A stretch of 64,000 nucleotides of DNA from an uncultured Bacteroidales bacterium (GTDB taxonomy: Bacteria; Bacteroidota; Bacteroidia; Bacteroidales; UBA10428). The DNA is taken from contig CAZDCD010000008.1 in the NCBI GenBank assembly GCA_964503885.1, positions 82,088 to 146,087 on the forward strand, read 5' to 3'. This document shows, in pieces, positions 6,494-26,722 of the stretch (positions are counted from its first letter, which is position 1; the number at the start of each line of letters is the position of its first letter). The notes beneath the pieces were generated by a model that saw nothing but the letters and a program-made list of their open reading frames with translations, did not search any database and was not told the DNA's origin. The translations under genes and the position numbers were made by a program.

Positions 6494-7967
6494 TTGTATT
6501 CCTTATGAATATTTTTATCAGTTTTTCCCTTTTTCCGATATAGTAAATAAACGGTAAAAATAGTAACGTATTTTTAATCATATTATAATACATATTCTCA
6601 ATTTTTGTTAGTTCACTAAATGCATATATAAATCCTGTAAGTACCATATATAAAAGAATTTTTTTTACCTCATAATCAATTTTAAAAAATCGTTGTCCGA
6701 TCACGTAGGATAAAATAACCATAACTGCATTACTTGCCAGTCTTGTAATAGCACATCCGTAATACCCTAGTGACGGTATTAAAACAGCATTTAATAGTAT
6801 TGTCAGCAGCGCACCGGAACCAATTATTACAATACCGTAATATGTTTTTGAAGATAATTTGTACCAAATGCTCAGGTTAAAAACCAGGCCGTTTAACACA
6901 GCAGCATACAAAACGATAGGAACTATCCGAATTCCCGAATGAAATTTCTGATCCACCAGTAGCTTAAAAATATCGATATACAGCATAACCATAAGAAAAA
7001 TAACCATGCAAAATAATACAAAATAGCGCATCACATCGGCATAAATTGTTTTTGCATTATCTGATTTATAATTTGTAAAATAAAAAGGATCAGCAGCATA
7101 TCTGAACATTTGAATAAATAAGGTCATTAACATGGCAATTCTGAAATTGGCACCATAAATTCCAAGTTCATATAATGAATCCATATTTTTCGGTAAAAAT
7201 TGTCTCAACAAAATTCTATCAATTGATTCATTAATTATCCCCGAAAGCTGGACAGCAAGTAAGGGTAAAGAATAAATCAATATTTTCTGTAATAGTTTTC
7301 TATCGAACGAAAACTTAATTTTCCTGTATTCAGTAAACAAAATAATCAATCGCACAAAACTTGCCAGAAAATTTGCAAGAAAAATATAATATACCTTTGT
7401 TCTGTATGATCCTAGAATTTTCGTCATTGAATTTGAGCTTTGTAACAATCCTGGTAATAATTCAAGAAAAAATATAACAAATACAATTGTTATTAATACA
7501 TTAAGTATCTGTACTACAACAAATTTGTAAATTCTTTCTTCTATCCTTAGTTTTGCAATAAAAAGGCTTGTTACAGCGTCAAGACCCACGATAATAAAAG
7601 CCCATCTCAAATATTCAGGGTGATTTCCATAATCCAGTAAATTTGCAATTCTTCCAGAAAAAATATAACCAATGATAATAAAACCTGCCGAACTGATGAG
7701 TAAGCTAAAACTTGTAGTACTGAACAACCGGTTTCCATCCGTATCAATTGAAAATCTGAAATAACCCGTTTCTAAACCGTATGTCATAAGTACCATAAAT
7801 ACAGAAATATATGCATATAATTCCGTAATTATACCAAATTCCTGTACTTCCAGACGCCTTGTATAATAAACTGTAAGAATAACGTAGTTTAGTATTCTGG
7901 GCACTATAGTACCCAGACCATAAATCAGTGTTTGTCCTCCTAGCTTTTTATATGGATTGTCCTTCAT
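6483..7967 (-). CDS. Polysaccharide biosynthesis / oligosaccharide flippase family membrane protein
   Basis: About 12-14 hydrophobic segments; [31 protein letters not shown]. Confidence 0.82.
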
Positions 7968-7977
7968 AATTCATCCT

Positions 7978-8826
7978 TCATACCAATGATTCAAAAGTTT
8001 CTTCTATTGACCTTTCTTTAAACATATATCCTGAATCCAATAATATTCTTGGAATAACATTCTGGCCTTCCAAAAGCATTACGGCAGCCTCACCGAAAAC
8101 CAACCTTACCAGACCGGGAGGTAGCCAAAAAAACAAAATCCCTTTTCTTTTTCGTAATAGTTTGTTGTAAAACTCTTTGTTTGATATTGTATAATTATTA
8201 ACCGCGTTTATAACTCCAACTATTTTCTTATTATTAAGTATGAAATCAACAATTCCAAATAATTCGTTTAAAGAACAAATTGGAATTAGCTGTTCCTTTC
8301 TTCCCATAATGAATATAACGCCAAATTTCATCATTGCATTTATCCATTTTAGAAAACCACCGTTTTTTCCCAAAATAATACCCATTCTAATAATAACTAA
8401 CCGTATGATATCCTTATTAGCTTTTTCTGCCATATTTTCCCATTTATTAATTATTTCTGTCAAATAATTATGTGAAAATTCCTTACTGAATTCATCATGT
8501 TTCATTTTTTTATCATAAAGTCCCACCGCAGAAGCGTTGATTAACACCTTATTCTTTCCTATACTATTTATTGCTTCTACTATTTTTTTAGTTGTATCCA
8601 GGCGGCTGTTCAATATTTTTCTTTTTCTTCTTCTTGTCCAAAATCCAAATACTGATACGCCGATAAAATTAAGAACGGCGTCAGCTTTCTCTAATTTATC
8701 CGTTAAAATATAAATATTTTCAAAGTCCTTTCGATCAATAGAAATAATCTTGTAACCCTTTCCTTTAAAAAAGGTATTCATGTTGCTTCCAATAAATCCC
8801 GTAATCCCGGCAATAGCAATTTTCAT
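7978..8826 (-). CDS. TIGR01777-type NAD-dependent epimerase/oxidoreductase (YfcH-like)
   Basis: GITGFIG Rossmann motif, NSRLDTT, INASAVGLY, RMGIILG, LLEGQNVIP...L. Confidence 0.82.
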   Translation of the reverse strand: MKIAIAGITGFIGSNMNTFFKGKGYKIISIDRKDFENIYILTDKLEKADAVLNFIGVSVFGFWTRRRKRKILNSRLDTTKKIVEAINSIGKNKVLINASAVGLYDKKMKHDEFSKEFSHNYLTEIINKWENMAEKANKDIIRLVIIRMGIILGKNGGFLKWINAMMKFGVIFIMGRKEQLIPICSLNELFGIVDFILNNKKIVGVINAVNNYTISNKEFYNKLLRKRKGILFFWLPPGLVRLVFGEAAVMLLEGQNVIPRILLDSGYMFKERSIEETFESLV

Positions 8827-16028: not shown

Positions 16029-19000
16029 ATGCTGAAAGGAAAAATGTCACCCGTGGAAATGATTTCCTTTATTCGAGGAGCTAAGATCAACACCTGGTTT
16101 GATCTTGGCATTTATATCGACTGGATACGTGAAAACAGAGCTACTCCGGCAATTGAATTTTCAGGCAGCTATCATGAGTTTCTTGCTCAAGAGCTTCAAC
16201 ATGGTCTCGCTTTCATCACTTTCCAGTTTTCAGTAGATGGTGTAAGTATTGAAATTGAAAAGTATGCAAAGGTTTTTCGGGAACTGATTGACGGGGTGAA
16301 GATTCATTATATAGCCGGAAAATTCTATCCCGATTCAAAAAGGAATATTCATAGTGACACGTACAAATTTGAACTTCGGGAAATTCAGGGTTTCGACAAA
16401 TGGAAATATTACCGGGATTTTTATTTTACACGGCTGGAAAGGGGAGGAGCCAGGTATAATCGACTGATCAGTGATCTGTGGCGGGATGTACTTATCATTA
16501 CGGAAAAGCTTGCCCATTATATTTACGAGCATAAAATCAATCTTCTTTTTATGGTAAATGTATGTTCCAATCCGGGAAATATTTCATTGGCTCTGGCGCT
16601 TGTTCTTATCTCTGAACTCATGGGAATTCCGGTGATCAACAATAATCATGATTTTTACTGGGAAGGTGGCAATAATCCGGCAGAAATTGAATCCAAAGGG
16701 TTAAAACCCGGACCCAGAGATTTCTTTTTCACCAATTATCATATCGGAGAGATCTTCTCACTGATTGAAATATTATTTCCCTGGGAGTCACGATCGTGGA
16801 TAAATGTCAATATCAATTGCAGTCAGTCAAAGCACCTGATCGAAAAGAAAGGGCATAATCCCGCGAATGTCACCGAGATTTGTACAGCGGTTGATACGGA
16901 TAAATTTGTCAATATCAGCAAAAGAAATAAGATAAATGCGTTTTTTCAGTTTGAAAAAATTCTGAGCCGTTATGGTAAAACATTGATCAGTTATTCAGTA
17001 GCCGATGTGATAAACAATAAACTGGTGGATCAAAAGGATCCCCGGCCTATTTTGATTGGACTGAAAACCCAGCCGCTGGTGAAGTTTTTAACCGAAAATA
17101 TTATTTTTCTTCAACCCACCAGGGTTATTTCAAGAAAGAAAATAGAGCTTGGATTTAAGTTAATCAGGCACTTGTTCGGCAATTCAAGCTTCACCGACAG
17201 GTTTAAACACACACCAAATCTCAAGGTTACGATTCTGGTTACCGGCCCGATAGCATCAGGGCATTTTGATTATTTTCATAAACTGATTTCCGATTTTGCC
17301 AGTTTGCTTAAATCGCTTGATGTTTCTTTGCGTGAGCGTGTTTTTCTGGCATTTTTATACAGTGAACTTGATAAAGAAAACTTTAAAAACAGGTTTAAAG
17401 AACCTGTTGGAATTCCGGAACTTTACAATATTTCCTCGCTGGTGCTGCTTCCGAGCAGAACAGAAGGACGCGGGCTTCCGATTATAGAAGCATCTGCTTG
17501 CGGAACACCCATATTGTGCAGACGGTATTTTCCCGAAAACGTTTATTCAGAAGTAATAGGGGAGCAATTGCCTGAAAATGAACGGCTGAAAGTATTGGAA
17601 TTCAACGGGAAAAAAATAACTGCAAAACATGCATTCAAGGTTCTTGAACGGGTGTTGTTTCCGCATAAATTTACCCATGAGGTTCTTCATAACAAAATGG
17701 CAGTCCAAAAAAGATTTAGCCTTAAGGCATTAACAAAAAATATTGAAGACATTTTGCTGCAGACTTATCACCAGGTAAAAAGGAATGAAAATTCCATGCG
17801 GATTACAGGTGAAATGGTAAGAAAGTATCTTACCCTTAATAATCAGGAGATTCCGTTATTATATACCATACTGAAAACAGATAATAGACAGTATCTGGCA
17901 GGCTACGGAAAGTTAAAGTACATGCTAAACTTAAAATCCCTGATCGATCCGAGTGCATTCAGGAACGAAGAACAACAAATCAAGGGATATATTTTCTCAT
18001 ATGCCCAATCGCTGGTAAAAAAAGGGAATACCAAATTACTTAAACGAATTCACATATTTTATAATGCAGTCGCCAATATTTTTATCTATCGGAAAGGAAA
18101 AGTGAAAATCCGTCATGATCATTCCTTTGCATACAGGCACAGGAATGAAAACCATTATCCTTACCAGGAGTTTACCCTTCAGGAATTGACAGGGCTTGTT
18201 AACATGCTGTATATTAGATTAGTCGGAAATCATCCTTCAAGAAGGATTGATGAGAGTTCACATTTTTTTACCGACTGGGATCTTGCGTTGGGACAAATGA
18301 CATCGAGCATTTATATTGCGATTGACGACCGCAAGATACTGATCAATAAAATGCAGTCGAATGTACCCGTTGGAATTTTCCCAGGAGATTATGTGAAATA
18401 TGAGCTTGAATTTTTTGCATTGCAGGCAATACGCTCAAGATTAAAACTAAAGATCGAAGATGAGTTGACGGAAGATATGATACTGGAACATCGCGATACT
18501 CTTGCTAAAATTTATTTATTTGCCCAGTCAGTTACGATAGGACGCTGGTTTAATGTGGATGAGATAAAGGAGTATATTGAGCATGGGCATGAAAATGAAT
18601 TATTTCTGTTATATAAACACGGAGTACTAAGAATTATTGAGACCCACCAGTGGTGCCTGGGTATCCATTTTTGCCAGATCGGCGAAAATGCACTGAAGGC
18701 CCTGAATGCCATTCATGAGCAGGATGGTTTTATCATTTCAAGCAGAATCGATGCCGCCATGATGACCGATATTGTAGATCTCGATAAATTTCATATCGGA
18801 CAAGCCGGCGATCCGGTTACGGCCAGCATGATGGGTATCGACAAGGGTGCCGGCTATATTCAATTTGTACCTGCAGGTATCAGAACCACACTGGCGTATC
18901 CCACACCTGTGCAAACTGCCAGGGACTTTCACAAGACACTTCACAGTGAATCATTCAGGAAGTTCGAATTAAAATATGGTGAAAAATACCTGTTTGATTT

Positions 19001-20207
19001 CATAAAAAAGGAATCGGAAGAGAATGGAACACCTGTAAATCAAATTCTTAGAATGATCAATGATGACAAGTCAGAAATTTCGCCGATTGATAACGGGTTT
19101 ATAAACGGACTGTATGAAGATGGAAATCCTTACAGCGGAGCATACGCCAAAGTTCGCATGCACAAAAACAACGGAAAATGGATTTTCAGGACCATTTCAA
19201 CAATGTCCAGACCTATGCAGGTTACCGAATTTGTTAAAAATTTCGAATTTACCAGCGGCAATTCAGTAAATATAGCCTGGAACGGAGGGTATATTCTAAA
19301 TAATGAGCTTGTTGGAAAGCTGGGTTTACCAGAATCATATATTGGTTCACCGTTAGGATTGCTTATTTCTGAGGGTATTTTACTGTGTCCGCCTTTATTC
19401 AATAAAGCAGCCATGCTTGTTGGTGCCGATAGCAAGGTGACAATACGAAAAGTCAATGTAAGAAAAGGAATCATAATCCGATGCAAAGATACGATTCTGA
19501 AAATGAGTGCTGAGCAGTATAATTTGCCCTCTCCGCCTGAAGGAGTCCCATGTTATTATGATCTGCTTTTTCCGGGGAATGAACTCGTTTCGAAAAACAG
19601 GGTAATCATCAGGCTTGCAGGCAACAAAATTAAAGAAGTCATATGGCCGCAGAATTCGAACTATGTGCGGATTATACCGGTCGGATTAACCCTATCCCTT
19701 CCTCTTGATCAGGTTCATGATGATCTGCTAAAGATCGAGGAGGAAATTATCATTGAGGTTTCAGGACTTGAAAATATCGTTCATGCTACCGGAGCCGGTC
19801 CCTTGCTTGTAAACAACGGAAGAATCTCTATCAATATGAAAGATGAAGGGTGGATGAGTGTAAACTCCATCAATACTCAGGCTGCCAGAATTGATTATAC
19901 CAACATGAGGGGACCAAAGATTGCTGCCGGAATTGATGATCAGGGAAATATTATTGTATTGGCTATCAATGGCAGAATTCGTGAATCTGTTGGAGCAACT
20001 CATCACGAGATGGCAGAAATTCTAATCGGAATGGGTGTTCAATCTGCAATGGGTTTTGATCCCGGAGGGAGCAGTACCCTCGTGGCTAATCATGAAGTAT
20101 TGAACATATCTCCATATAATCCCGATTACGATAAAAATATATATGCATTGCCACCACAGCCACGAGCTGTATCAAATGCAATCCTCGGCTATTTTAAGCA
20201 TAAGTAA
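16029..20207 (+). CDS. Large fusion protein: MggS-like GT4 glycosyltransferase, uncharacterised middle domain, and C-terminal NAGPA-like phosphodiester glycosidase domain
   Basis: N-terminal VDGVSIEIEK, NHDFYWEG, QPTRVISRK, SRTEGRGLPIIEA (GT4 ExxGxxxxEA). C-terminal NGGYILN, GAGPLLVNNG, GPKIAAG, AINGR...SVGAT, GFDPGGSSTL (compare NAGPA LDGGGSS). Start could be a downstream Met. Confidence 0.8.
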   Translation: MLKGKMSPVEMISFIRGAKINTWFDLGIYIDWIRENRATPAIEFSGSYHEFLAQELQHGLAFITFQFSVDGVSIEIEKYAKVFRELIDGVKIHYIAGKFYPDSKRNIHSDTYKFELREIQGFDKWKYYRDFYFTRLERGGARYNRLISDLWRDVLIITEKLAHYIYEHKINLLFMVNVCSNPGNISLALALVLISELMGIPVINNNHDFYWEGGNNPAEIESKGLKPGPRDFFFTNYHIGEIFSLIEILFPWESRSWINVNINCSQSKHLIEKKGHNPANVTEICTAVDTDKFVNISKRNKINAFFQFEKILSRYGKTLISYSVADVINNKLVDQKDPRPILIGLKTQPLVKFLTENIIFLQPTRVISRKKIELGFKLIRHLFGNSSFTDRFKHTPNLKVTILVTGPIASGHFDYFHKLISDFASLLKSLDVSLRERVFLAFLYSELDKENFKNRFKEPVGIPELYNISSLVLLPSRTEGRGLPIIEASACGTPILCRRYFPENVYSEVIGEQLPENERLKVLEFNGKKITAKHAFKVLERVLFPHKFTHEVLHNKMAVQKRFSLKALTKNIEDILLQTYHQVKRNENSMRITGEMVRKYLTLNNQEIPLLYTILKTDNRQYLAGYGKLKYMLNLKSLIDPSAFRNEEQQIKGYIFSYAQSLVKKGNTKLLKRIHIFYNAVANIFIYRKGKVKIRHDHSFAYRHRNENHYPYQEFTLQELTGLVNMLYIRLVGNHPSRRIDESSHFFTDWDLALGQMTSSIYIAIDDRKILINKMQSNVPVGIFPGDYVKYELEFFALQAIRSRLKLKIEDELTEDMILEHRDTLAKIYLFAQSVTIGRWFNVDEIKEYIEHGHENELFLLYKHGVLRIIETHQWCLGIHFCQIGENALKALNAIHEQDGFIISSRIDAAMMTDIVDLDKFHIGQAGDPVTASMMGIDKGAGYIQFVPAGIRTTLAYPTPVQTARDFHKTLHSESFRKFELKYGEKYLFDFIKKESEENGTPVNQILRMINDDKSEISPIDNGFINGLYEDGNPYSGAYAKVRMHKNNGKWIFRTISTMSRPMQVTEFVKNFEFTSGNSVNIAWNGGYILNNELVGKLGLPESYIGSPLGLLISEGILLCPPLFNKAAMLVGADSKVTIRKVNVRKGIIIRCKDTILKMSAEQYNLPSPPEGVPCYYDLLFPGNELVSKNRVIIRLAGNKIKEVIWPQNSNYVRIIPVGLTLSLPLDQVHDDLLKIEEEIIIEVSGLENIVHATGAGPLLVNNGRISINMKDEGWMSVNSINTQAARIDYTNMRGPKIAAGIDDQGNIIVLAINGRIRESVGATHHEMAEILIGMGVQSAMGFDPGGSSTLVANHEVLNISPYNPDYDKNIYALPPQPRAVSNAILGYFKHK

Positions 20208-20409: not shown

Positions 20410-20790
20410 TCAATATGAGTATTCTATTGAAATGGCTTTTTCCAGTGATTCTTTGCTGATCTCATCTTTAATGATGTAGCTTCGGGCGCCGGCTTCGATC
20501 ATCTGCACAATATATTTCATTTCGGAATGAAACGATACTGCCACGATCACCAGATTCCTGTAAAGCATTGTGGCTTCGCGTGTGGCTTCAATACCATTCA
20601 GACCGGGCATATTTATATCCATAAAAACAATGTCATACAATTTACTTTTAAGCACTTCCAGGCAATCCCTGCCGTCATTTACTGCACTGATGGTATCGAT
20701 TTTATCCTCAAAAGAATCTGTTAACATGAATTTTAATGCATTGCAGAAATGTGGATTATCATCTACTATCAATACTTTAAGCTTCTTCAT
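20410..20790 (-). CDS. Stand-alone response regulator receiver domain (NarL-type REC, no output domain)
   Basis: VLIVDD, FMDINMPGLNG (phospho-Asp), VAVSF, SYIIKD. Start set at ATG 20790 because the -7 element lies at 20806-20813. Confidence 0.9.
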   Translation of the reverse strand: MKKLKVLIVDDNPHFCNALKFMLTDSFEDKIDTISAVNDGRDCLEVLKSKLYDIVFMDINMPGLNGIEATREATMLYRNLVIVAVSFHSEMKYIVQMIEAGARSYIIKDEISKESLEKAISIEYSY

Positions 20791-20805
20791 ATAGGGAATT
20801 TTATA

Positions 20806-20920
20806 CAAATATACCCGGTTTGCTTAATTTAAGATAGAGTTAATGTACGCAATTATAGGATTTTTCTACGTAAATTTTGAGGTAGTAAATACCTATATTG
20901 CTCTGAGTATTTTCCGACAT
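20806..20920 (-). promoter_or_regulatory. Promoter P1 with four-site regulator array (drives the receiver-only gene)
   Basis: -7 TATATTTG (rc, 20806-20813). Plus-strand TACGCAATT at offset 40, TACGTAAA at 61, TACCTA at 84, inverted GTATTTTCCGAC at 101. Confidence 0.7.
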
Positions 20921-21019
20921 GATGATAAAAGTGTACTGATTTTAATCCAGCTACTTAACCAATGAGAGTGTAAAATAAAAAAAGCATATAGTTACAGTTA
21001 AGGGTTTTATATAAAGTCA

Positions 21020-21048
21020 AACGGGATGTCATTTTTTGGCATCCCGTT
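21020..21048 (-). terminator. Hairpin ending the candidate sRNA
   Basis: AACGGGATGTCA-TTTTT-TGGCATCCCGTT (12 bp with one imperfect pair); the U tract is weak. Confidence 0.5.
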
Positions 21049-21142
21049 ATCCCACCTAAATCCAACCAAACCCTAAAACTAGCTAAACCCTTTTTAACTT
21101 TAAAAACCCTGTATTCTTAACACTTAAATATGAAAATCTTTA
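21020..21142 (-). ncRNA. Candidate ~120-nt small RNA with three AGGGUUU repeats
   Basis: Own -7 element (21148-21155) and regulator array, no credible ORF, AAACCCT x3 on the plus strand (21068, 21085, 21104), and a closing 12-bp hairpin at 21020-21048. The ends are estimates. Confidence 0.5.
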
Positions 21143-21147
21143 GGATA

Positions 21148-21262
21148 CAAAAATAAAGTGTATATGATGCTAAAATGATAGTGGAAATACCTAATTTTCA
21201 AGAAATATTACCCAAAACCCGGTAGGTAATAACCTCCATGAATATTGCGTATTTTCCGACAT
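21148..21262 (-). promoter_or_regulatory. Promoter P2 with four-site regulator array (drives the candidate sRNA)
   Basis: -7 TATTTTTG (rc, 21148-21155). TACCTAATT at offset 40, TACCCAAA at 61, AACCTC at about 83, and GTATTTTCCGACAT at 101 (14-bp identity with P1 at the same offset). Confidence 0.7.
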
Positions 21263-21558
21263 TATTTCCGTACTATTTTAAGCAATTCAAAGTTGCGGTT
21301 TTTCTTTTCTTCCAGAAACTCTCTGATATATTTATCATTCAATCCGTTTGAATATTTCTGGATCCGGATAATATCATCATTTATTTTTTGAACATCAGGT
21401 ATACCCGGATTGCTCACGAGAAGGCTGTTAAAATTCTTTTTAAGCAAATTCAAAATTTCCATTTTTGAATGATCCTTATTAGCCTTACTGAGCAAATGAA
21501 AAACCTCTCTTCTTATTTTATATGAAAGATCGTTATCGTATTGCACAAGCGCTTCCAT
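21262..21558 (-). CDS. Small hypothetical helical protein (98 aa)
   Basis: ATG-started ORF with a charged, amphipathic composition, preceded by promoter P3. No family recognised. Confidence 0.6.
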   Translation of the reverse strand: MEALVQYDNDLSYKIRREVFHLLSKANKDHSKMEILNLLKKNFNSLLVSNPGIPDVQKINDDIIRIQKYSNGLNDKYIREFLEEKKNRNFELLKIVRK

Positions 21559-21639
21559 AATGTTGATTCAAAAGTTGCCGCAGATAATGAAGTTAAGATT
21601 CCGTGTCAAATCCTTTTCGATATTCGTATTTTCTGCAAT

Positions 21640-21755
21640 CAAAATTAGTTCAACAATTATGGCAGAAGCACCGCGCTAACTACTCAATTTTCATGAAAAA
21701 ATACGCAAATATATCTGGCGGTTTTTACGCATAATATCATGTGTAAAAACCGCCA
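21640..21755 (-). promoter_or_regulatory. Promoter P3 with four-site regulator array (drives the 98-aa ORF)
   Basis: -7 TAATTTTG (rc, 21640-21647). TACTCAATT at offset 41, TACGCAAA at 62, TACGCA at 86, inverted GTAAAAACCGCC at 103. The last two form a near-perfect 17-bp inverted repeat at 21716-21755. Confidence 0.68.
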
Positions 21756-21835: not shown

Positions 21836-22471
21836 TCAGATGGAAACAAGCTTGTTCTTAATGGCATATACGACCAGACTGATCGAATTTTTTGATTCGG
21901 TTTTCTGCAATAAGCTTGATCGATGTCTTTCCACTGTTCGCTGACTGATGAACAGCGTATTGGAGATTTGCTGGTTTGAATACCCTTTGCAGATCAGTTC
22001 AAGCACTTCCTTTTCTCTCCGGGTTAAAGGGATAGCCTGATCAGATGATTTATCTTTAATCAGGTTAAGTAACAGTTCCTGTGAAAAAAAATTGCCGCCA
22101 TTGGTAACTTTGAGGATGGCATCGTGCAATTCATTGTTATCAATATCCTTCAGAATAAAGCCTTTAACACCCATATCAATCATTGTATTGTAATATTTGG
22201 TATCGCCAAACATAGATAGGACGAGGATGTTTAATTGCGGGTATTTCTGAAGTGCCAGTTGAGCTGCTTCAACGCCATTCATTACCGGCATATTGATATC
22301 CAGCAATACCACATCAGGAAGCCCATAAGTGAGAAGCTCGAGAAACTCTTTCCCGTTGGATGCTTCTCCTATTACTTCCAGGTCATCGGATTCGTTTAAA
22401 ATAAACTTTAAACCGCTTCTGAAAAGCTGGTGGTCATCCACGATAATTAGTTGCTTCCTTTTCATTGCCAT
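21836..22471 (-). CDS. NarL/FixJ-family DNA-binding response regulator (REC plus LuxR HTH)
   Basis: IVDDHQLFRSG, LLDINMPVMNG, GFILKD, LTRREKEVLELICKGYSNQQIS...RTVERHR. Confidence 0.95.
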   Translation of the reverse strand: MAMKRKQLIIVDDHQLFRSGLKFILNESDDLEVIGEASNGKEFLELLTYGLPDVVLLDINMPVMNGVEAAQLALQKYPQLNILVLSMFGDTKYYNTMIDMGVKGFILKDIDNNELHDAILKVTNGGNFFSQELLLNLIKDKSSDQAIPLTRREKEVLELICKGYSNQQISNTLFISQRTVERHRSSLLQKTESKNSISLVVYAIKNKLVSI

Positions 22472-22660: not shown

Positions 22661-25600
22661 TTAAACAGGAATATTCAATTCAAATGACATCCCTTTACCT
22701 GGTTCTGAAAGATAGGAATACCTTCCTTTTAAGGATCTTACGCGGCTTATAATATTTGAAATACCCATCCCGAGAGTAACTTTCTGATCGAAATTTACAT
22801 AATCAAAGCCAACGCCATTATCTTTAAAATTCAACCTGAGGTTTTTACCTTCGAGCACTATTCTTAATTGTATTTCTGCAGCTCCGGCATGTTTTATGGT
22901 ATTATTGATCAACTCTTTGATGATCCTGTATAATGAGGTTTCAATTTCATCTGAAAACCGGTTATCGGCAATGTTGCTTTGAAATTTGATAACTATGTGC
23001 TCTTCCACATTTCTGGCAAATGACTCTATGGATGCATAAAGGCCATAGTTTTTCAGAATGTGCGGGCTCAGATCATTTGAAATTTCTTTTGTGCTCTGAA
23101 TGGCTTCCTTAACAATTTCATTCAACTGGTCGATAATAAATTTCTGTTTTTCTATTTCCTGAATGCTATCAATGGTATTAACATACATTTTAATACTCGA
23201 CAGGAGAGGACCCAGATCGTCATGCAGGTTTTTAGCAAATTTTTCCCTTTCTTTTTCTTCTGTTCTTATTATTGCATCAAGTATTTTTTTCTCCATAAAT
23301 TTCATCTCGGTGATGTCTTCATAGGTGCCAAGAACTCCTATTGTACTCCCTGTAGCATTCTTAAGGGGAATTTTACTTGTTTTAAGCCATATCTTGTGAC
23401 CATCGGGTGTGGTTTGAGGTTCCTCATAATTCATGATTGAAACAGCATCTGACAATACCTTCCTGTCGTCGGCACGATACAGATCTGCCTCCGATTTCCA
23501 CGAAAGCTGGTAATCGTCCATTCCGATTATTTTAAACGGATCGTCAAAACCTGCATCCTGGGCAAAAAGTTTATTACAGCCAAGGTATTTGAATTCACTG
23601 TTTTTCCAAAATACCCTCACAGGAATTGTATTCAGGATTATCTGCAACATACTGTTGGCTTCAGCAAGCTGTGCTTCCCTTTCATATAGCGCGTTTTCAG
23701 CGGCTTTTCTGGAGGTAATATCCCGCACTATTGCCTGCAGGTATATTTCTCCGGAAAACTCAATTCTTTGTAAGGCAACTTCGGCATCGAAGTGCACCCC
23801 ATCGAATTTGATATGCTGCCATTCGAAAAACTGGGGAACCCCGTCATATGCCGCTTTAATTTTCTCCATACCTTTTTCAAGTGAATCTCTTCCGTCGGGT
23901 TGTTTCTGCGGTGAAAACCTGAACGGGGTCTGGTTAAGGATTTCTTCCCTACTGCACCCATACATTTTTAATGTTGCACTATTGCAATCCACAAACTTAT
24001 TTTCCTTCATCATAAAAATGGCATCGCTGGCAGATTCAAAGAGCAACCTGAATTTTTGTTCACTTTCCACAAGGGCTCTTTCAGATAGCTTTCTTTCGGT
24101 AATATCTCTGAATAATGCCTGTAAACGACCGTCTGCGAGCATTTTAGTGTTCATTTCCACTTCGATGCTTTTACCATCTTTTCGTGTAAGATACCGCTCA
24201 TTGATCACATTTTGGCCTGATCTTACAAGGTCATAGCGCAACGGTTTTGCTTTTATTTCATTATTCCGGAAAAGCATTTCGATTTTTTGGTTAATCAATT
24301 CGTTTTTTTCAAACCCCGATATTTTGCACATGCTTGAGTTTGCATTGGTAATGATACCATCTTCATTTCCCACAAGAATACCGTCGGCAGCCTGTTCGAA
24401 TAAAGTGCGGTATCGTTCCTCACTTTCCATCAAAGCATGTTGCGATAGTTTGCGTTCAGTTACTTCATAAACCGAAGCCAGGAGCTTTGAGGGATTCCCG
24501 TCTTTATTGTATTCAAAGATTATGGCCGAAACAGATACCCAGATCATTTTGTTATCTTTCCTTGTTAACCTGAGTTCAAACTCAAAGGTCTTGTCTTTCA
24601 CATTGTTTTTTAAACCTGAAACAGTATTGATTACCAGGTTAAAATCTTCAGGATGTATTATTTCTTTGAGATTATCTTTTAACCGGTATATCTCTTCACT
24701 GGTATAACCGGTTATACCAGTAATCTTTTCAGAGACATAAGAAATACTAAGGCATTCAAGATCGAAAATTACAAAAACAGTGGGCGAGGTATTTATAATA
24801 CCCTGCAGGTATTTATTTGTATTCTTCAGCTCTTCCTCGGCTTTAATTCGTTCCGATATATTTTCAAATGCCACTCCGACCCTGTTTCTTGGAAGTGGAA
24901 ATGCCTTGACTGAAAATGCTCCTGAAATGACCCTCTCATCGGAATAATAAATATCACTGATTTCAATGGGGATTTTTGTTTGAACGACATCGAAATATTT
25001 TTGCGGAATGCCTTTTTCACGCAGTCCCGGAAAATTCTCATCGAGTGTTTTTCCGATGATCTCACCAACCGGAACACCGGTTAATTTTTCTGTGGCAGGA
25101 TTTGCAGCGATCATCCTCAATGTTTTATTGTCGTCCGGATCCTCCAATTCATAGATATGAATTCCTGTCTGTATGTTTTCAAACAGGTCGGCTGCCTGCT
25201 GCAACACCTCTTCGGTCTTTTTTCTTTCGGAAATATCACGAATAACTGCCAAAACGCGCTTGCTACCTGCGATATGAGCACTTTTTAAGGATACTTCAGT
25301 CCAAAATGTTGACCCATCTTTTCTTTTACTCATCCACTTAAAAATCTGAGGCCGTTTGGTGGCTGCTTTTTTCACCAGGGCTAAAGCTTTCCTGCTGGTT
25401 TCTTCTGACTTTCCGGCGCTTAAATCGCCGGCCCGGTTGCCGATTATTTCGTCATAGCTGTAACCAAACATATCAAGAGTTGCCTTATTCACGTCAAGGA
25501 TTTTACCGGTATCGATCTCATGAATAAATATTGATTCCGATGTGGCGTTAAAGATCTCTCTATAATTCTGTTCACTTTTCATCAACGAGATCAGGGAATT

Positions 25601-26722
25601 CTTCCGGTTCAATGCATTGACGAATATCTGGCCGGCCATTTTTAGCAGGTAGAAATCAGTATCCGTCTTTTCAGATAATTTCTTCGTAGAATTAAAACAA
25701 AGCAGGGCCAGAGGAAAACCTTGCAGGGTGATTTGCATAATTATGCCTGCATTCAATCCCAGCTCTTTCATAGTGATTTTTAGTTTATTTGCTGTCTGGG
25801 GTATATGATTTAACGAAGGAATAAATACAATTTCATGATCAATCAATTCATTATTCATCCACGGGATTTCATCCGGATTTATCGAACACAATTTTTTAGT
25901 ATTAAAAGTTTCTTCCTTTTTAATCCATTGATGAGTGATCATAAACTTGTCATGCTCATAGTCAAACATCAGGATATGTCCTTCATCGCAATCTATAAAT
26001 CCGGCGATTTCACCAAGGGCCTTAACAATCTCGTTATCCACATTCTCAGGTGGAATATTAATAAATTGCGTGGATATCCCGGAAAGCAGTCTTTCAAAAT
26101 GATTCCTGTATAACAGATCGTTCTCGATTTTTTTTACAGCAGTTATATCTCTCTGTGTGCTCCAGATGCCGGTAAGTTTATTGCCGAGGATTATGCCTAC
26201 GGAATTGTTTAATATATACACCGTGTCTCCATCATCATTTACACTTTCCAAAAAAAGGTTCGTAATTTTATATCCTGAATGAACAAAATCTGTGATCAGT
26301 TTCTTTATATTACCGCAGTCTTCTTTTTTCAGGATTGTCCGGACAGGTGTGCCGATAAGATCTTCTTTATGCTTATACCCCAAACGTTGGGCATAAGCAA
26401 GGTTACATTCTGCAAAAAAACTTTCGTTAAAAATTTCCTGTACCTGTTTTTTTTCAGAATATTCAAGAGAGACAGGTTTCCCAAATTCAATCATGAATAT
26501 GGATTCACTGCTTCTTTCAACGAATATCCTGTATTTTGATTCACTCTGCTTCAATTCATTTGATCGTTCATTAACCAGCAGTTCGAGGTAGTCTCTGTAT
26601 TTCTCAAGTTCTTCCACGGAAAACGATCCGGCTTTTTTATGCCGCTTTTTCAACATTTGGTTTTCCTTTTCGAGAAATTTAATCCTTGAAGTCAGCTCTG
26701 AATAGGAAACTCGATTTTCCAT
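22661..26722 (-). CDS. Soluble multi-PAS/GAF sensor histidine kinase (HisKA_3 type)
   Basis: About seven PAS/PAC repeats ending in RDITERK-like motifs, one GAF-like segment, H box [35 protein letters not shown]. No transmembrane segment seen. Confidence 0.93.

Follow-up and report, generated by a model that had tools for sequence, protein, structure and literature searches.

Post-transcriptional control is poorly mapped in the Bacteroidota, which to our knowledge lack Hfq, ProQ and CsrA, and almost all of the small RNAs (sRNAs) that we know of from them come from one gut species. Here, we examine a 64,000-nucleotide (nt) stretch of DNA from an uncultured Bacteroidales bacterium (contig CAZDCD010000008.1; the whole stretch is called the window below), in which an intergenic element on the minus strand had been singled out, in an earlier note made from the sequence alone, as a candidate regulator-activated sRNA with three AGGGUUU repeats. 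From the comparison of this element with its relatives, we conclude that it is very probably a real sRNA gene of an undescribed family, which many uncultured Bacteroidales and two putative giant phages carry and which is recognizable by an invariant 22-nt core followed by a covarying terminator. This would be a widespread sRNA family of uncultured environmental Bacteroidales with a clear input, namely a PAS kinase and a NarL-type regulator.

The locus

Read along the minus strand, the locus comprises, in this order, a PAS kinase, a NarL-type regulator, a palindrome, an open reading frame (ORF) of 98 amino acids (aa), the candidate RNA and a receiver gene. The kinase (22661–26722) is a 1353-aa multi-PAS HisKA_3 histidine kinase by Pfam, with conserved synteny, and is presumed to be the sensor of the system. 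The 211-aa NarL/LuxR-type response regulator (21836–22471; Pfam Response_reg and GerE), whose orthologues of 53–86% identity stand upstream of the sRNA in most loci, is presumed to be the activator of the sRNA. The receiver gene (20410–20790) encodes a receiver-only response regulator of 126 aa with a Response_reg domain only (PF00072, E = 6e-24).

The predicted transcript is about 130 nt long (21011–21142, minus strand), its 5′ end being placed by a −7 promoter box and its 3′ end by an intrinsic terminator. What the earlier note had described, roughly 120 nt without a credible ORF that hold three AGGGTTT copies and a 12-bp hairpin behind a promoter termed P2, is all present on this strand, with the three copies at 21110–21104, 21091–21085 and 21074–21068. 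AGGGTTT is not enriched over the window (14 found against 11.5 expected); four copies within 110 nt, one of them inverted, against about 0.02 expected are a real local cluster. The inverted copy (21001–21007 on the plus strand, AAACCCT on the RNA strand) sits just 3′ of the terminator and was treated as incidental, as among the relatives read it occurs only in the window and in the identical contig L108.

The third repeat lies within a core (21050–21075, minus strand) that reads TAGGGTTTGGTTGGATTTAGGT followed by GGGA and whose first 22 nt are invariant; as RNA, these form the G/U-rich 22-mer UAGGGUUUGGUUGGAUUUAGGU. A 20-mer inside the core occurs once in the window against 0.01 expected, even with up to three mismatches allowed. 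The single-sequence folding energy of the RNA is unremarkable (z = −1.46); the case for more than chance rests on conservation, not on this one sequence.

An invariant core next to a covarying terminator

We sampled relatives through the 211-aa regulator, the 98-aa ORF having no homologues, by a genome scan and contig look-ups. The regulator has thousands of relatives, many of them at 67–86% identity in metagenome-assembled genomes (MAGs) of Bacteroidales. In all ten loci that combine a regulator orthologue with the 126-aa receiver gene (the window, L081, L083, L084, L197, L199, L200 and L005–7), the 22-mer lies between the two genes in the same orientation, and it is absent from all six related regulator loci that lack the receiver gene (L001–4, L008 and L201). 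The core is thus invariant in loci that were sampled independently of it, at regulator identities of 76–86% (L081–L085) and 62% (L005–7) as well as in L197, L199 and L200. Over the same loci, the receiver gene is 71–78% identical at the DNA level, and the intergenic DNA flanking the core is barely alignable. A covariance model built on the element (R1) finds one copy in the window (21078–21011, 71.3 bits, E = 9e-17). Next to more distant regulator homologues (L001–L004, L008–L080) the model found no divergent member. R1 could be used to annotate the family in metagenomes.

Directly after the core comes an intrinsic terminator (21011–21048, minus strand) with a 12-bp stem (21048–21037 paired with 21031–21020; 11 of the 12 positions of its 12-nt arms are paired), a 5-nt loop and the T-tail TGACTTTAT at 21019–21011, that is, a G+C-rich stem-loop and a T/U-run on the transcribed strand. 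Across the family, the terminator starts 2–8 nt after the core, and its hairpin sequences fall into at least four subfamilies (A, which is window-like, B, C and D) that share no hairpin sequence. In an alignment of 34 members, 92% of stem cells are nevertheless paired and 11 of the 12 pairs change on both sides. The covariation score of 0.651 compares with 0.296 in shuffles, none of 500 of which reached it, and with 0.12–0.24 when the partners were moved by one to three columns. The G·U pairs and the T-run are confined to the transcribed strand of the element, which argues that it works as RNA.

The strand bias also bears on whether the element acts at the level of DNA, as a protein-binding or recombination site that lies beside a palindrome by chance. 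An invariant 22-mer could be a DNA operator, and many contigs end near the core. Against this, the orientation is fixed relative to the promoter and the T-run, which is found on one strand only; pairing in the hairpin is kept through G·U and U·G pairs, which are A/C mismatches on the other strand; and the palindrome may vary in sequence provided that it still pairs, a signature of RNA structure. We therefore regard a DNA element as very improbable.

Even less probable, to the point of being negligible, is a hidden small protein gene. Short ORFs exist: the sole ATG of the region opens 11 codons (MPKNDIPFDFI), just as the earlier note had it, and the remaining ORFs of at least 20 aa begin with TTG and span 20–36 aa. 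None of them is conserved, because relatives differ by indels and by stop codons in frame. The linker shows single-nucleotide indels (GGGATAACGGG versus GGGATAAACGGG), loops differ completely in length and sequence between relatives, and TAG stops occur in or right after the core. We rejected the small-ORF reading on these grounds.

Judged by the comparison of these sequences, the element is non-coding, strand-specific and ended by a terminator, and purifying selection on a 22-nt stretch of it is very strong. In relatives it has a conserved promoter of its own and the covarying terminator, in line with the discrete unit that had been proposed. Repeats 1 and 2 (21085–21110, minus strand) are a feature of subfamily A only, where they are recognizable yet degenerate in six of seven members. 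Subfamilies B, C and D have neither, and both look as if they had arisen by partial duplication of the core's 5′ end. Conservation is limited to repeat 3, which lies within the core, and a definition of the RNA by three AGGGUUU repeats is not supported.

No conserved structure was found in the 5′ leader of subfamily A beyond a G·U-rich helix, without covariation, between the repeats and the core middle. We likewise found no conserved alternative (antiterminator) structure: the terminator is the only helix with covariation, and with a core that never changes beside a terminator sequence that does, no antiterminator could be conserved. In minimal RNAs of core and terminator, the core is mostly unpaired, with a median unpaired probability of 0.70. 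A G-quadruplex in the core was considered and rejected, as ViennaRNA with G-quadruplex folding does not predict one and paralogues break the G-tracts.

Promoters and an operator-like box

Upstream of the predicted transcript, the −7 box TATTTTTG (21148–21155, minus strand; P2 of the earlier note) matches the Bacteroidetes consensus TAnnTTTG. The corresponding box reads TAT(T/A)TTTGTA in five of six subfamily-A relatives and TATATTTG in subfamilies B, C and D. The distal −7 boxes of subfamily A predict transcripts of 112–131 nt, which agrees with the length of about 120 nt given in the earlier note.

Starting 105 nt upstream of the sRNA −7 box is an operator-like box (box 1; 21230–21262, minus strand) made up of ATGTCGGAAAATAC and an imperfect inverted repeat, ATACGCAA / ATGGAGGT. 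A second (box 2; 20889–20920, minus strand), composed of the same 14-mer ATGTCGGAAAATAC and the right half TATAGGTAT, precedes the receiver promoter, whose −7 box TATATTTG (20806–20813, minus strand) is again 105 nt from the start of the box. The window has just two exact copies of the 14-mer, at 21262–21249 and 20920–20907. From 109 distinct sites, the consensus is tGTCGGtAAATACnnAt-N6-7-TTnnGTA, that is, GTCGG and an inverted repeat ATACnCAt / aTGnGTAT. Box 1 is conserved in relatives, and the layout of box, −7 box and leader is common to subfamilies A–D. Box and −7 box are spaced by either 82–83 or 103–106 nt in 52 of 53 loci (105 nt by direct count at both window promoters), two classes that lie about two helical turns apart, and the leader between −7 box and core varies from 46 to 127 nt. 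The box holds a heptamer resembling TACYYMT, which we take to be the NarL consensus, as a lead rather than a test.

One distant locus separates the box from the sRNA. In L011, a Marinilabiliaceae MAG with a regulator 53% identical to that of the window, the box AATGTCGGAAAATACCCAT-ATCAA-ATGGGTAAT (6880–6912) follows the regulator gene and precedes a cstA-like transporter gene (6999–8441), and neither the sRNA nor the receiver gene is found there. The box stays with the regulator in L011 without the sRNA, which supports the box as a candidate operator of the regulator. The conserved upstream box, which in most loci lies beside the regulator gene, supports a link between the sRNA and the adjacent NarL-type regulator.

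The sRNA and the receiver gene

In the window and in subfamilies A and C, a full second box and a −7 box stand between the terminator and the receiver ATG (at 20790 in the window); a box in this position is found in all subfamily-A and most subfamily-C members. The receiver gene of the window thus has a box and a −7 box to itself, so that the element is more than a leader for it there, and sRNA and receiver are probably separate, co-regulated units in the window and in subfamilies A and C. Subfamilies B and D have no second box, and in most of their members no −7 box separates the terminator from the receiver gene. With no second promoter, the receiver must be expressed by read-through in these lineages, and the RNA doubles as its leader.

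An alternative is therefore that the element is a cis-acting leader or attenuator of the receiver gene, with a single transcript that is mostly stopped at the terminator, a short RNA as by-product and a core that binds a factor tuning read-through. It is supported by the perfect co-occurrence with the receiver gene in the core-independent sample (10/10 versus 0/6), to which subfamilies B and D add loci that have no second box, mostly no −7 box and a terminator-to-receiver gap as short as about 12–30 nt (L105, L199). An independent promoter nevertheless precedes the receiver gene in the window and generally in subfamilies A and C. Arrays of two to three units, orphan copies and copies in phage 3′ untranslated regions (UTRs), described below, cannot be receiver leaders, and conserved antiterminator pairing is impossible where the terminator sequence differs between subfamilies and the core does not. 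On balance, we consider an attenuator unlikely as the general explanation.

Distribution in metagenomes and phages

Scanning metagenome contigs for exact matches to an 18-mer gave 101 stretches. In about 85 of these, (T/C)AGGG precedes the match and a G+C-rich hairpin with a T-run follows 2–8 nt after the core; by our own rough estimate, the remaining 16 or so, which have no hairpin, are about what chance 18-mer matches would yield in a collection this large. Some genomes carry tandem arrays of two to four units. Three units lie 114 nt apart in L151 (2657–2945) and two, also 114 nt apart, in L133 (9808–9983), both arrays having the box and the distal promoter on the first unit only; L125 has three units with promoters of their own (499–1290), and L094, L177 and L178 (196–956) each hold more than one copy. 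Diverged paralogues, among them copies in L178 and L152, keep (A/G)G(G/A)GTTTGGTT and alter the 3′ half of the core.

Orphan copies stand in unrelated contexts without a receiver gene (L098, L099, L100, L122, L152 and L160). The L160 core (987–1004) is antisense to the 5′ UTR of a divergent gene for a 210-aa lipoprotein (ORF 337–969), 15 nt from its ATG; in no other case did we see a perfectly complementary target built in.

In two IMG/VR contigs, putative huge phages of 640 and 676 kb, a sigma-70-like gene is followed, directly behind its stop codon, by the core and terminator (L189, 2998–3067, plus strand; L190, 2490–2556, minus strand). This gene matches the phage sigma-factor family phrog_351; its matches reach at most 41% identity, and the phage group could not be identified through it. 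On a further metagenome contig, L156 (8415–8481, minus strand), the terminator hairpin equals that of the 676-kb contig and a phage-type family-B DNA polymerase adjoins the core. The phage copies could be cases of phage capture of a host regulatory RNA. Taken together, arrays, paralogues, orphans and phage copies indicate that the minimal recurring module is the core with its terminator.

Neighbouring genes and other features

The 98-aa ORF (21262–21558, minus strand), the stop codon of which overlaps box 1, has no Pfam match and no database homologue except itself; L081/L082 have an ORF 37% identical to it in the same position. It is preceded by a near-consensus −7 box (AACTTTTG, 21569–21576, minus strand) and, about 60 nt upstream of that, by a degenerate third box (TTGCAGAAAATAC, 21626–21638, minus strand), a spacing unlike the 83 or 105 nt at the other promoters. 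Further upstream, shortly after the regulator stop codon, a 20-bp near-perfect palindrome (21716–21755) sets the regulator operon apart from the sRNA and the 98-aa ORF; it has a plus-strand terminator score and appears bidirectional.

Convergent to the receiver gene, on the plus strand, lies a gene for a 1392-aa protein with glycosyltransferase-4 and NAGPA (phosphodiester glycosidase) domains (16029–20207). Subfamily A conserves a convergent gene of this kind, encoding about 1390 aa, and at least one further locus (L113) has it too; it was seen in L084, L197, L174 and L113. L199 and L200 have a PagL-like and a SiaC-like gene in its place. Several loci encode a small protein of 103–133 aa with the motif ..IILDGFF.KSEIELA.., either in the interval from the regulator gene to the sRNA or a short way upstream of an sRNA array (L081, 4942–5343; L083, 4815–5216; L198, 3878–4276; L151, 2197–2508; L177, 163–546; L133, 9331–9660). 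The four members scanned had no Pfam match, and the window has no detectable copy.

A proposed mode of action

Our best reading, which we hold with moderate confidence, is that positions 21142–21011 of the minus strand encode a regulator-dependent sRNA that acts in trans. The NarL-type regulator would bind the box and, in the window, switch on both the roughly 130-nt sRNA and the receiver gene, as separate transcription units. Function would reside in the core with its terminator, the 5′ leader with AGGGUUU repeats 1 and 2 being lineage-specific. The core would serve as the effector surface, presumably as a base-pairing seed acting in trans on C/A-rich mRNA segments elsewhere in the genome, which is the least certain step and would be akin to other sRNAs under regulator control whose seeds are invariant. 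In lineages without a second promoter, terminator read-through would couple receiver expression to the sRNA promoter. We favour base pairing in trans because paralogues vary the 3′ half of the core, because there is one cis-antisense case and because the architecture is shared with base-pairing sRNAs of Bacteroides (PMC11697453).

Several observations weigh against this proposal. Target prediction, by ungapped complementarity with G·U allowed, gave no support: within the window, the top non-self match to the core reaches a complementarity score of 34, compared with 34.6 on average for the best hits of shuffled cores; the translation start regions of receiver and regulator genes across lineages are not enriched for core complementarity; and in sRNA-bearing loci, 626 start regions show no significant excess once two trivial antisense cases are taken out. 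Regarding the transcript itself, its 5′ end is placed by promoter consensus alone, and in subfamily C, orphan and phage copies the arrangement TTTG-ATG-TAGGG puts a −7-like TTTG four nt before the core, so that the RNA may there be as short as about 60 nt and start with the core. The T-tail of the window is interrupted, which is probably why a generic terminator scan missed the site, and the predicted full-length window fold pairs the core middle with repeat 2, mostly by G·U. In subfamilies B and D, the terminator lies 12–150 nt before the receiver start codon without a promoter between them. Finally, zero variation over 22 nt exceeds what most seeds need and fits a protein-binding site about equally well.

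This last point leads to the alternative of a protein-binding RNA, in which a conserved RNA-binding protein would dock on the core (an RRM-type protein, for instance, given that Bacteroides are reported to be without Hfq and CsrA), to be titrated or used as a scaffold, and in which the variable 5′ leader rather than the core could carry target specificity. All 22 positions, U's included, stay the same down to regulator identities of about 53%, as one would sooner expect of a macromolecular recognition surface than of a seed. By direct reading, the core consists of five U(A/U)GG-like units, UAGG-GU-UUGG-UUGG-AUU-UAGG-U(A/G)GG. It lies directly 5′ of the terminator, the place of chaperone-binding modules in other sRNAs. 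The putative phage contigs carry just core and terminator, and no base-pairing target was detected in the window or in the start regions, although the target scan spanned only the window and short flanks, so that a missing target is weak evidence. On the other side, no candidate protein was found, one conserved site per RNA makes a poor sponge unless the RNA is very abundant or arrayed, and paralogues with an altered 3′ half persist, which resembles the diversification of a seed. We regard a protein-binding RNA as rather unlikely, although less so than an attenuator.

The trans-acting, base-pairing sRNA that we favour is partly prefigured in the GGGUUU seed of the earlier note: diverged paralogues do keep (A/G)G(G/A)GTTTGGTT, although no AAACCC-type target rises above chance. 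A bolder version, more doubtful than any alternative above except a DNA element or a small protein, would make the RNA the main post-transcriptional output of the kinase–regulator system, a Bacteroidales counterpart of Qrr or RsmYZ, with the core bound by a dedicated partner (a new RNA-binding protein or even the single-domain receiver, always inherited together with the RNA) and with giant phages having captured core and terminator to hijack the host circuit.

Whichever way the core acts, the functional element is sharply defined as 22 invariant nt and a terminator, and arrays, paralogues, leader-embedded forms and putative phage copies provide natural variants of it. As a candidate main output of an uncharacterized two-component system, the RNA offers a handle for finding an RNA-binding partner or a regulon.

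Comparison with known systems

Rfam release 15 has no match at gathering score in the whole window, and at E values up to 10 only chance-level hits in 20700–21400 and in the L151 array; a literature search for the core sequence returned unrelated primer matches only. The kind of RNA, a regulator-controlled sRNA with a conserved single-stranded effector region and an intrinsic terminator, is known, and the family appears to be undescribed.

The closest resemblance in design is to FopS/GibS of Bacteroides thetaiotaomicron, multicopy RNAs of 65–70 nt that have a single-stranded 5′ stretch and a Rho-independent terminator and are bound by RbpB, FopS targeting susC-like mRNAs (PMC11697453). Both belong to the same phylum and combine a conserved single-stranded stretch followed by a terminator, multicopy paralogues and Bacteroidetes −7-box promoters; we take this as a likeness of architecture and not as evidence of homology. 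Members of subfamily C, orphans and phage copies would also be about 60–70 nt long if they use the core-proximal −7-like box, compared with the 65–70 nt of FopS. In its 5′ region, subfamily C weakly resembles the published FopS 5′ consensus (shuffle p = 0.003–0.017), which is suggestive only, and the local alignment of that consensus with the window RNA is not significant (p = 0.145). The Rfam search gave no FopS match at E values up to 10, with the presence of the FopS model in the Rfam copy used left unchecked (its consensus structure is described as deposited in Rfam; PMC11697453). In contrast to FopS, the family described here has another core sequence that is far more strictly conserved, a two-component system as neighbour, an operator-like box and, in the window, a leader of about 65 nt before the core.

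The proposed arrangement, in which a NarL/FixJ-family regulator would drive, through a conserved upstream site, a non-coding RNA that ends in a terminator, is that of RsmY/RsmZ and CsrB/CsrC. These RNAs are activated by GacA/UvrY and titrate CsrA/RsmA through many GGA motifs in loops. The family here has one conserved core, its extra AGGGUUU copies being lineage-specific and degenerate, and no Rfam match to them. The earlier analogy with a Gac/Rsm–Csr multi-motif sponge is not supported, as repeats 1 and 2 are degenerate within subfamily A and absent from the other subfamilies: a single core of 22–26 nt is conserved, and the feature that defines such sponges is missing. Bacteroides are reported to be without CsrA and Hfq (PMC13370968).

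Individual branches of the family resemble sRNAs of the CpxQ and DapZ type, which derive from 3′ UTRs or leaders: the phage copies lie behind the stop codon of a sigma-factor gene, and those of subfamilies B and D in the 5′ leader of the receiver gene. The window RNA differs in having its own promoter and terminator, with a separate promoter for the next gene.

In its genetic setting, the family is also like the Qrr sRNAs of Vibrio, where a response-regulator gene adjoins the sRNA gene, one to several paralogues occur and a long conserved single-stranded region is followed by a terminator. Qrr sRNAs are activated by LuxO and need sigma-54 and Hfq. Here, the promoter has a TAnnTTTG −7 box and the regulator is of the NarL type, and the sequences are unrelated, with no Qrr match in Rfam. 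A Qrr-like feedback pairing with the start region of the regulator mRNA was looked for and not found. By analogy, it is plausible that the sRNAs of this family are, like Qrr, the main output of the signalling system beside which they are encoded.

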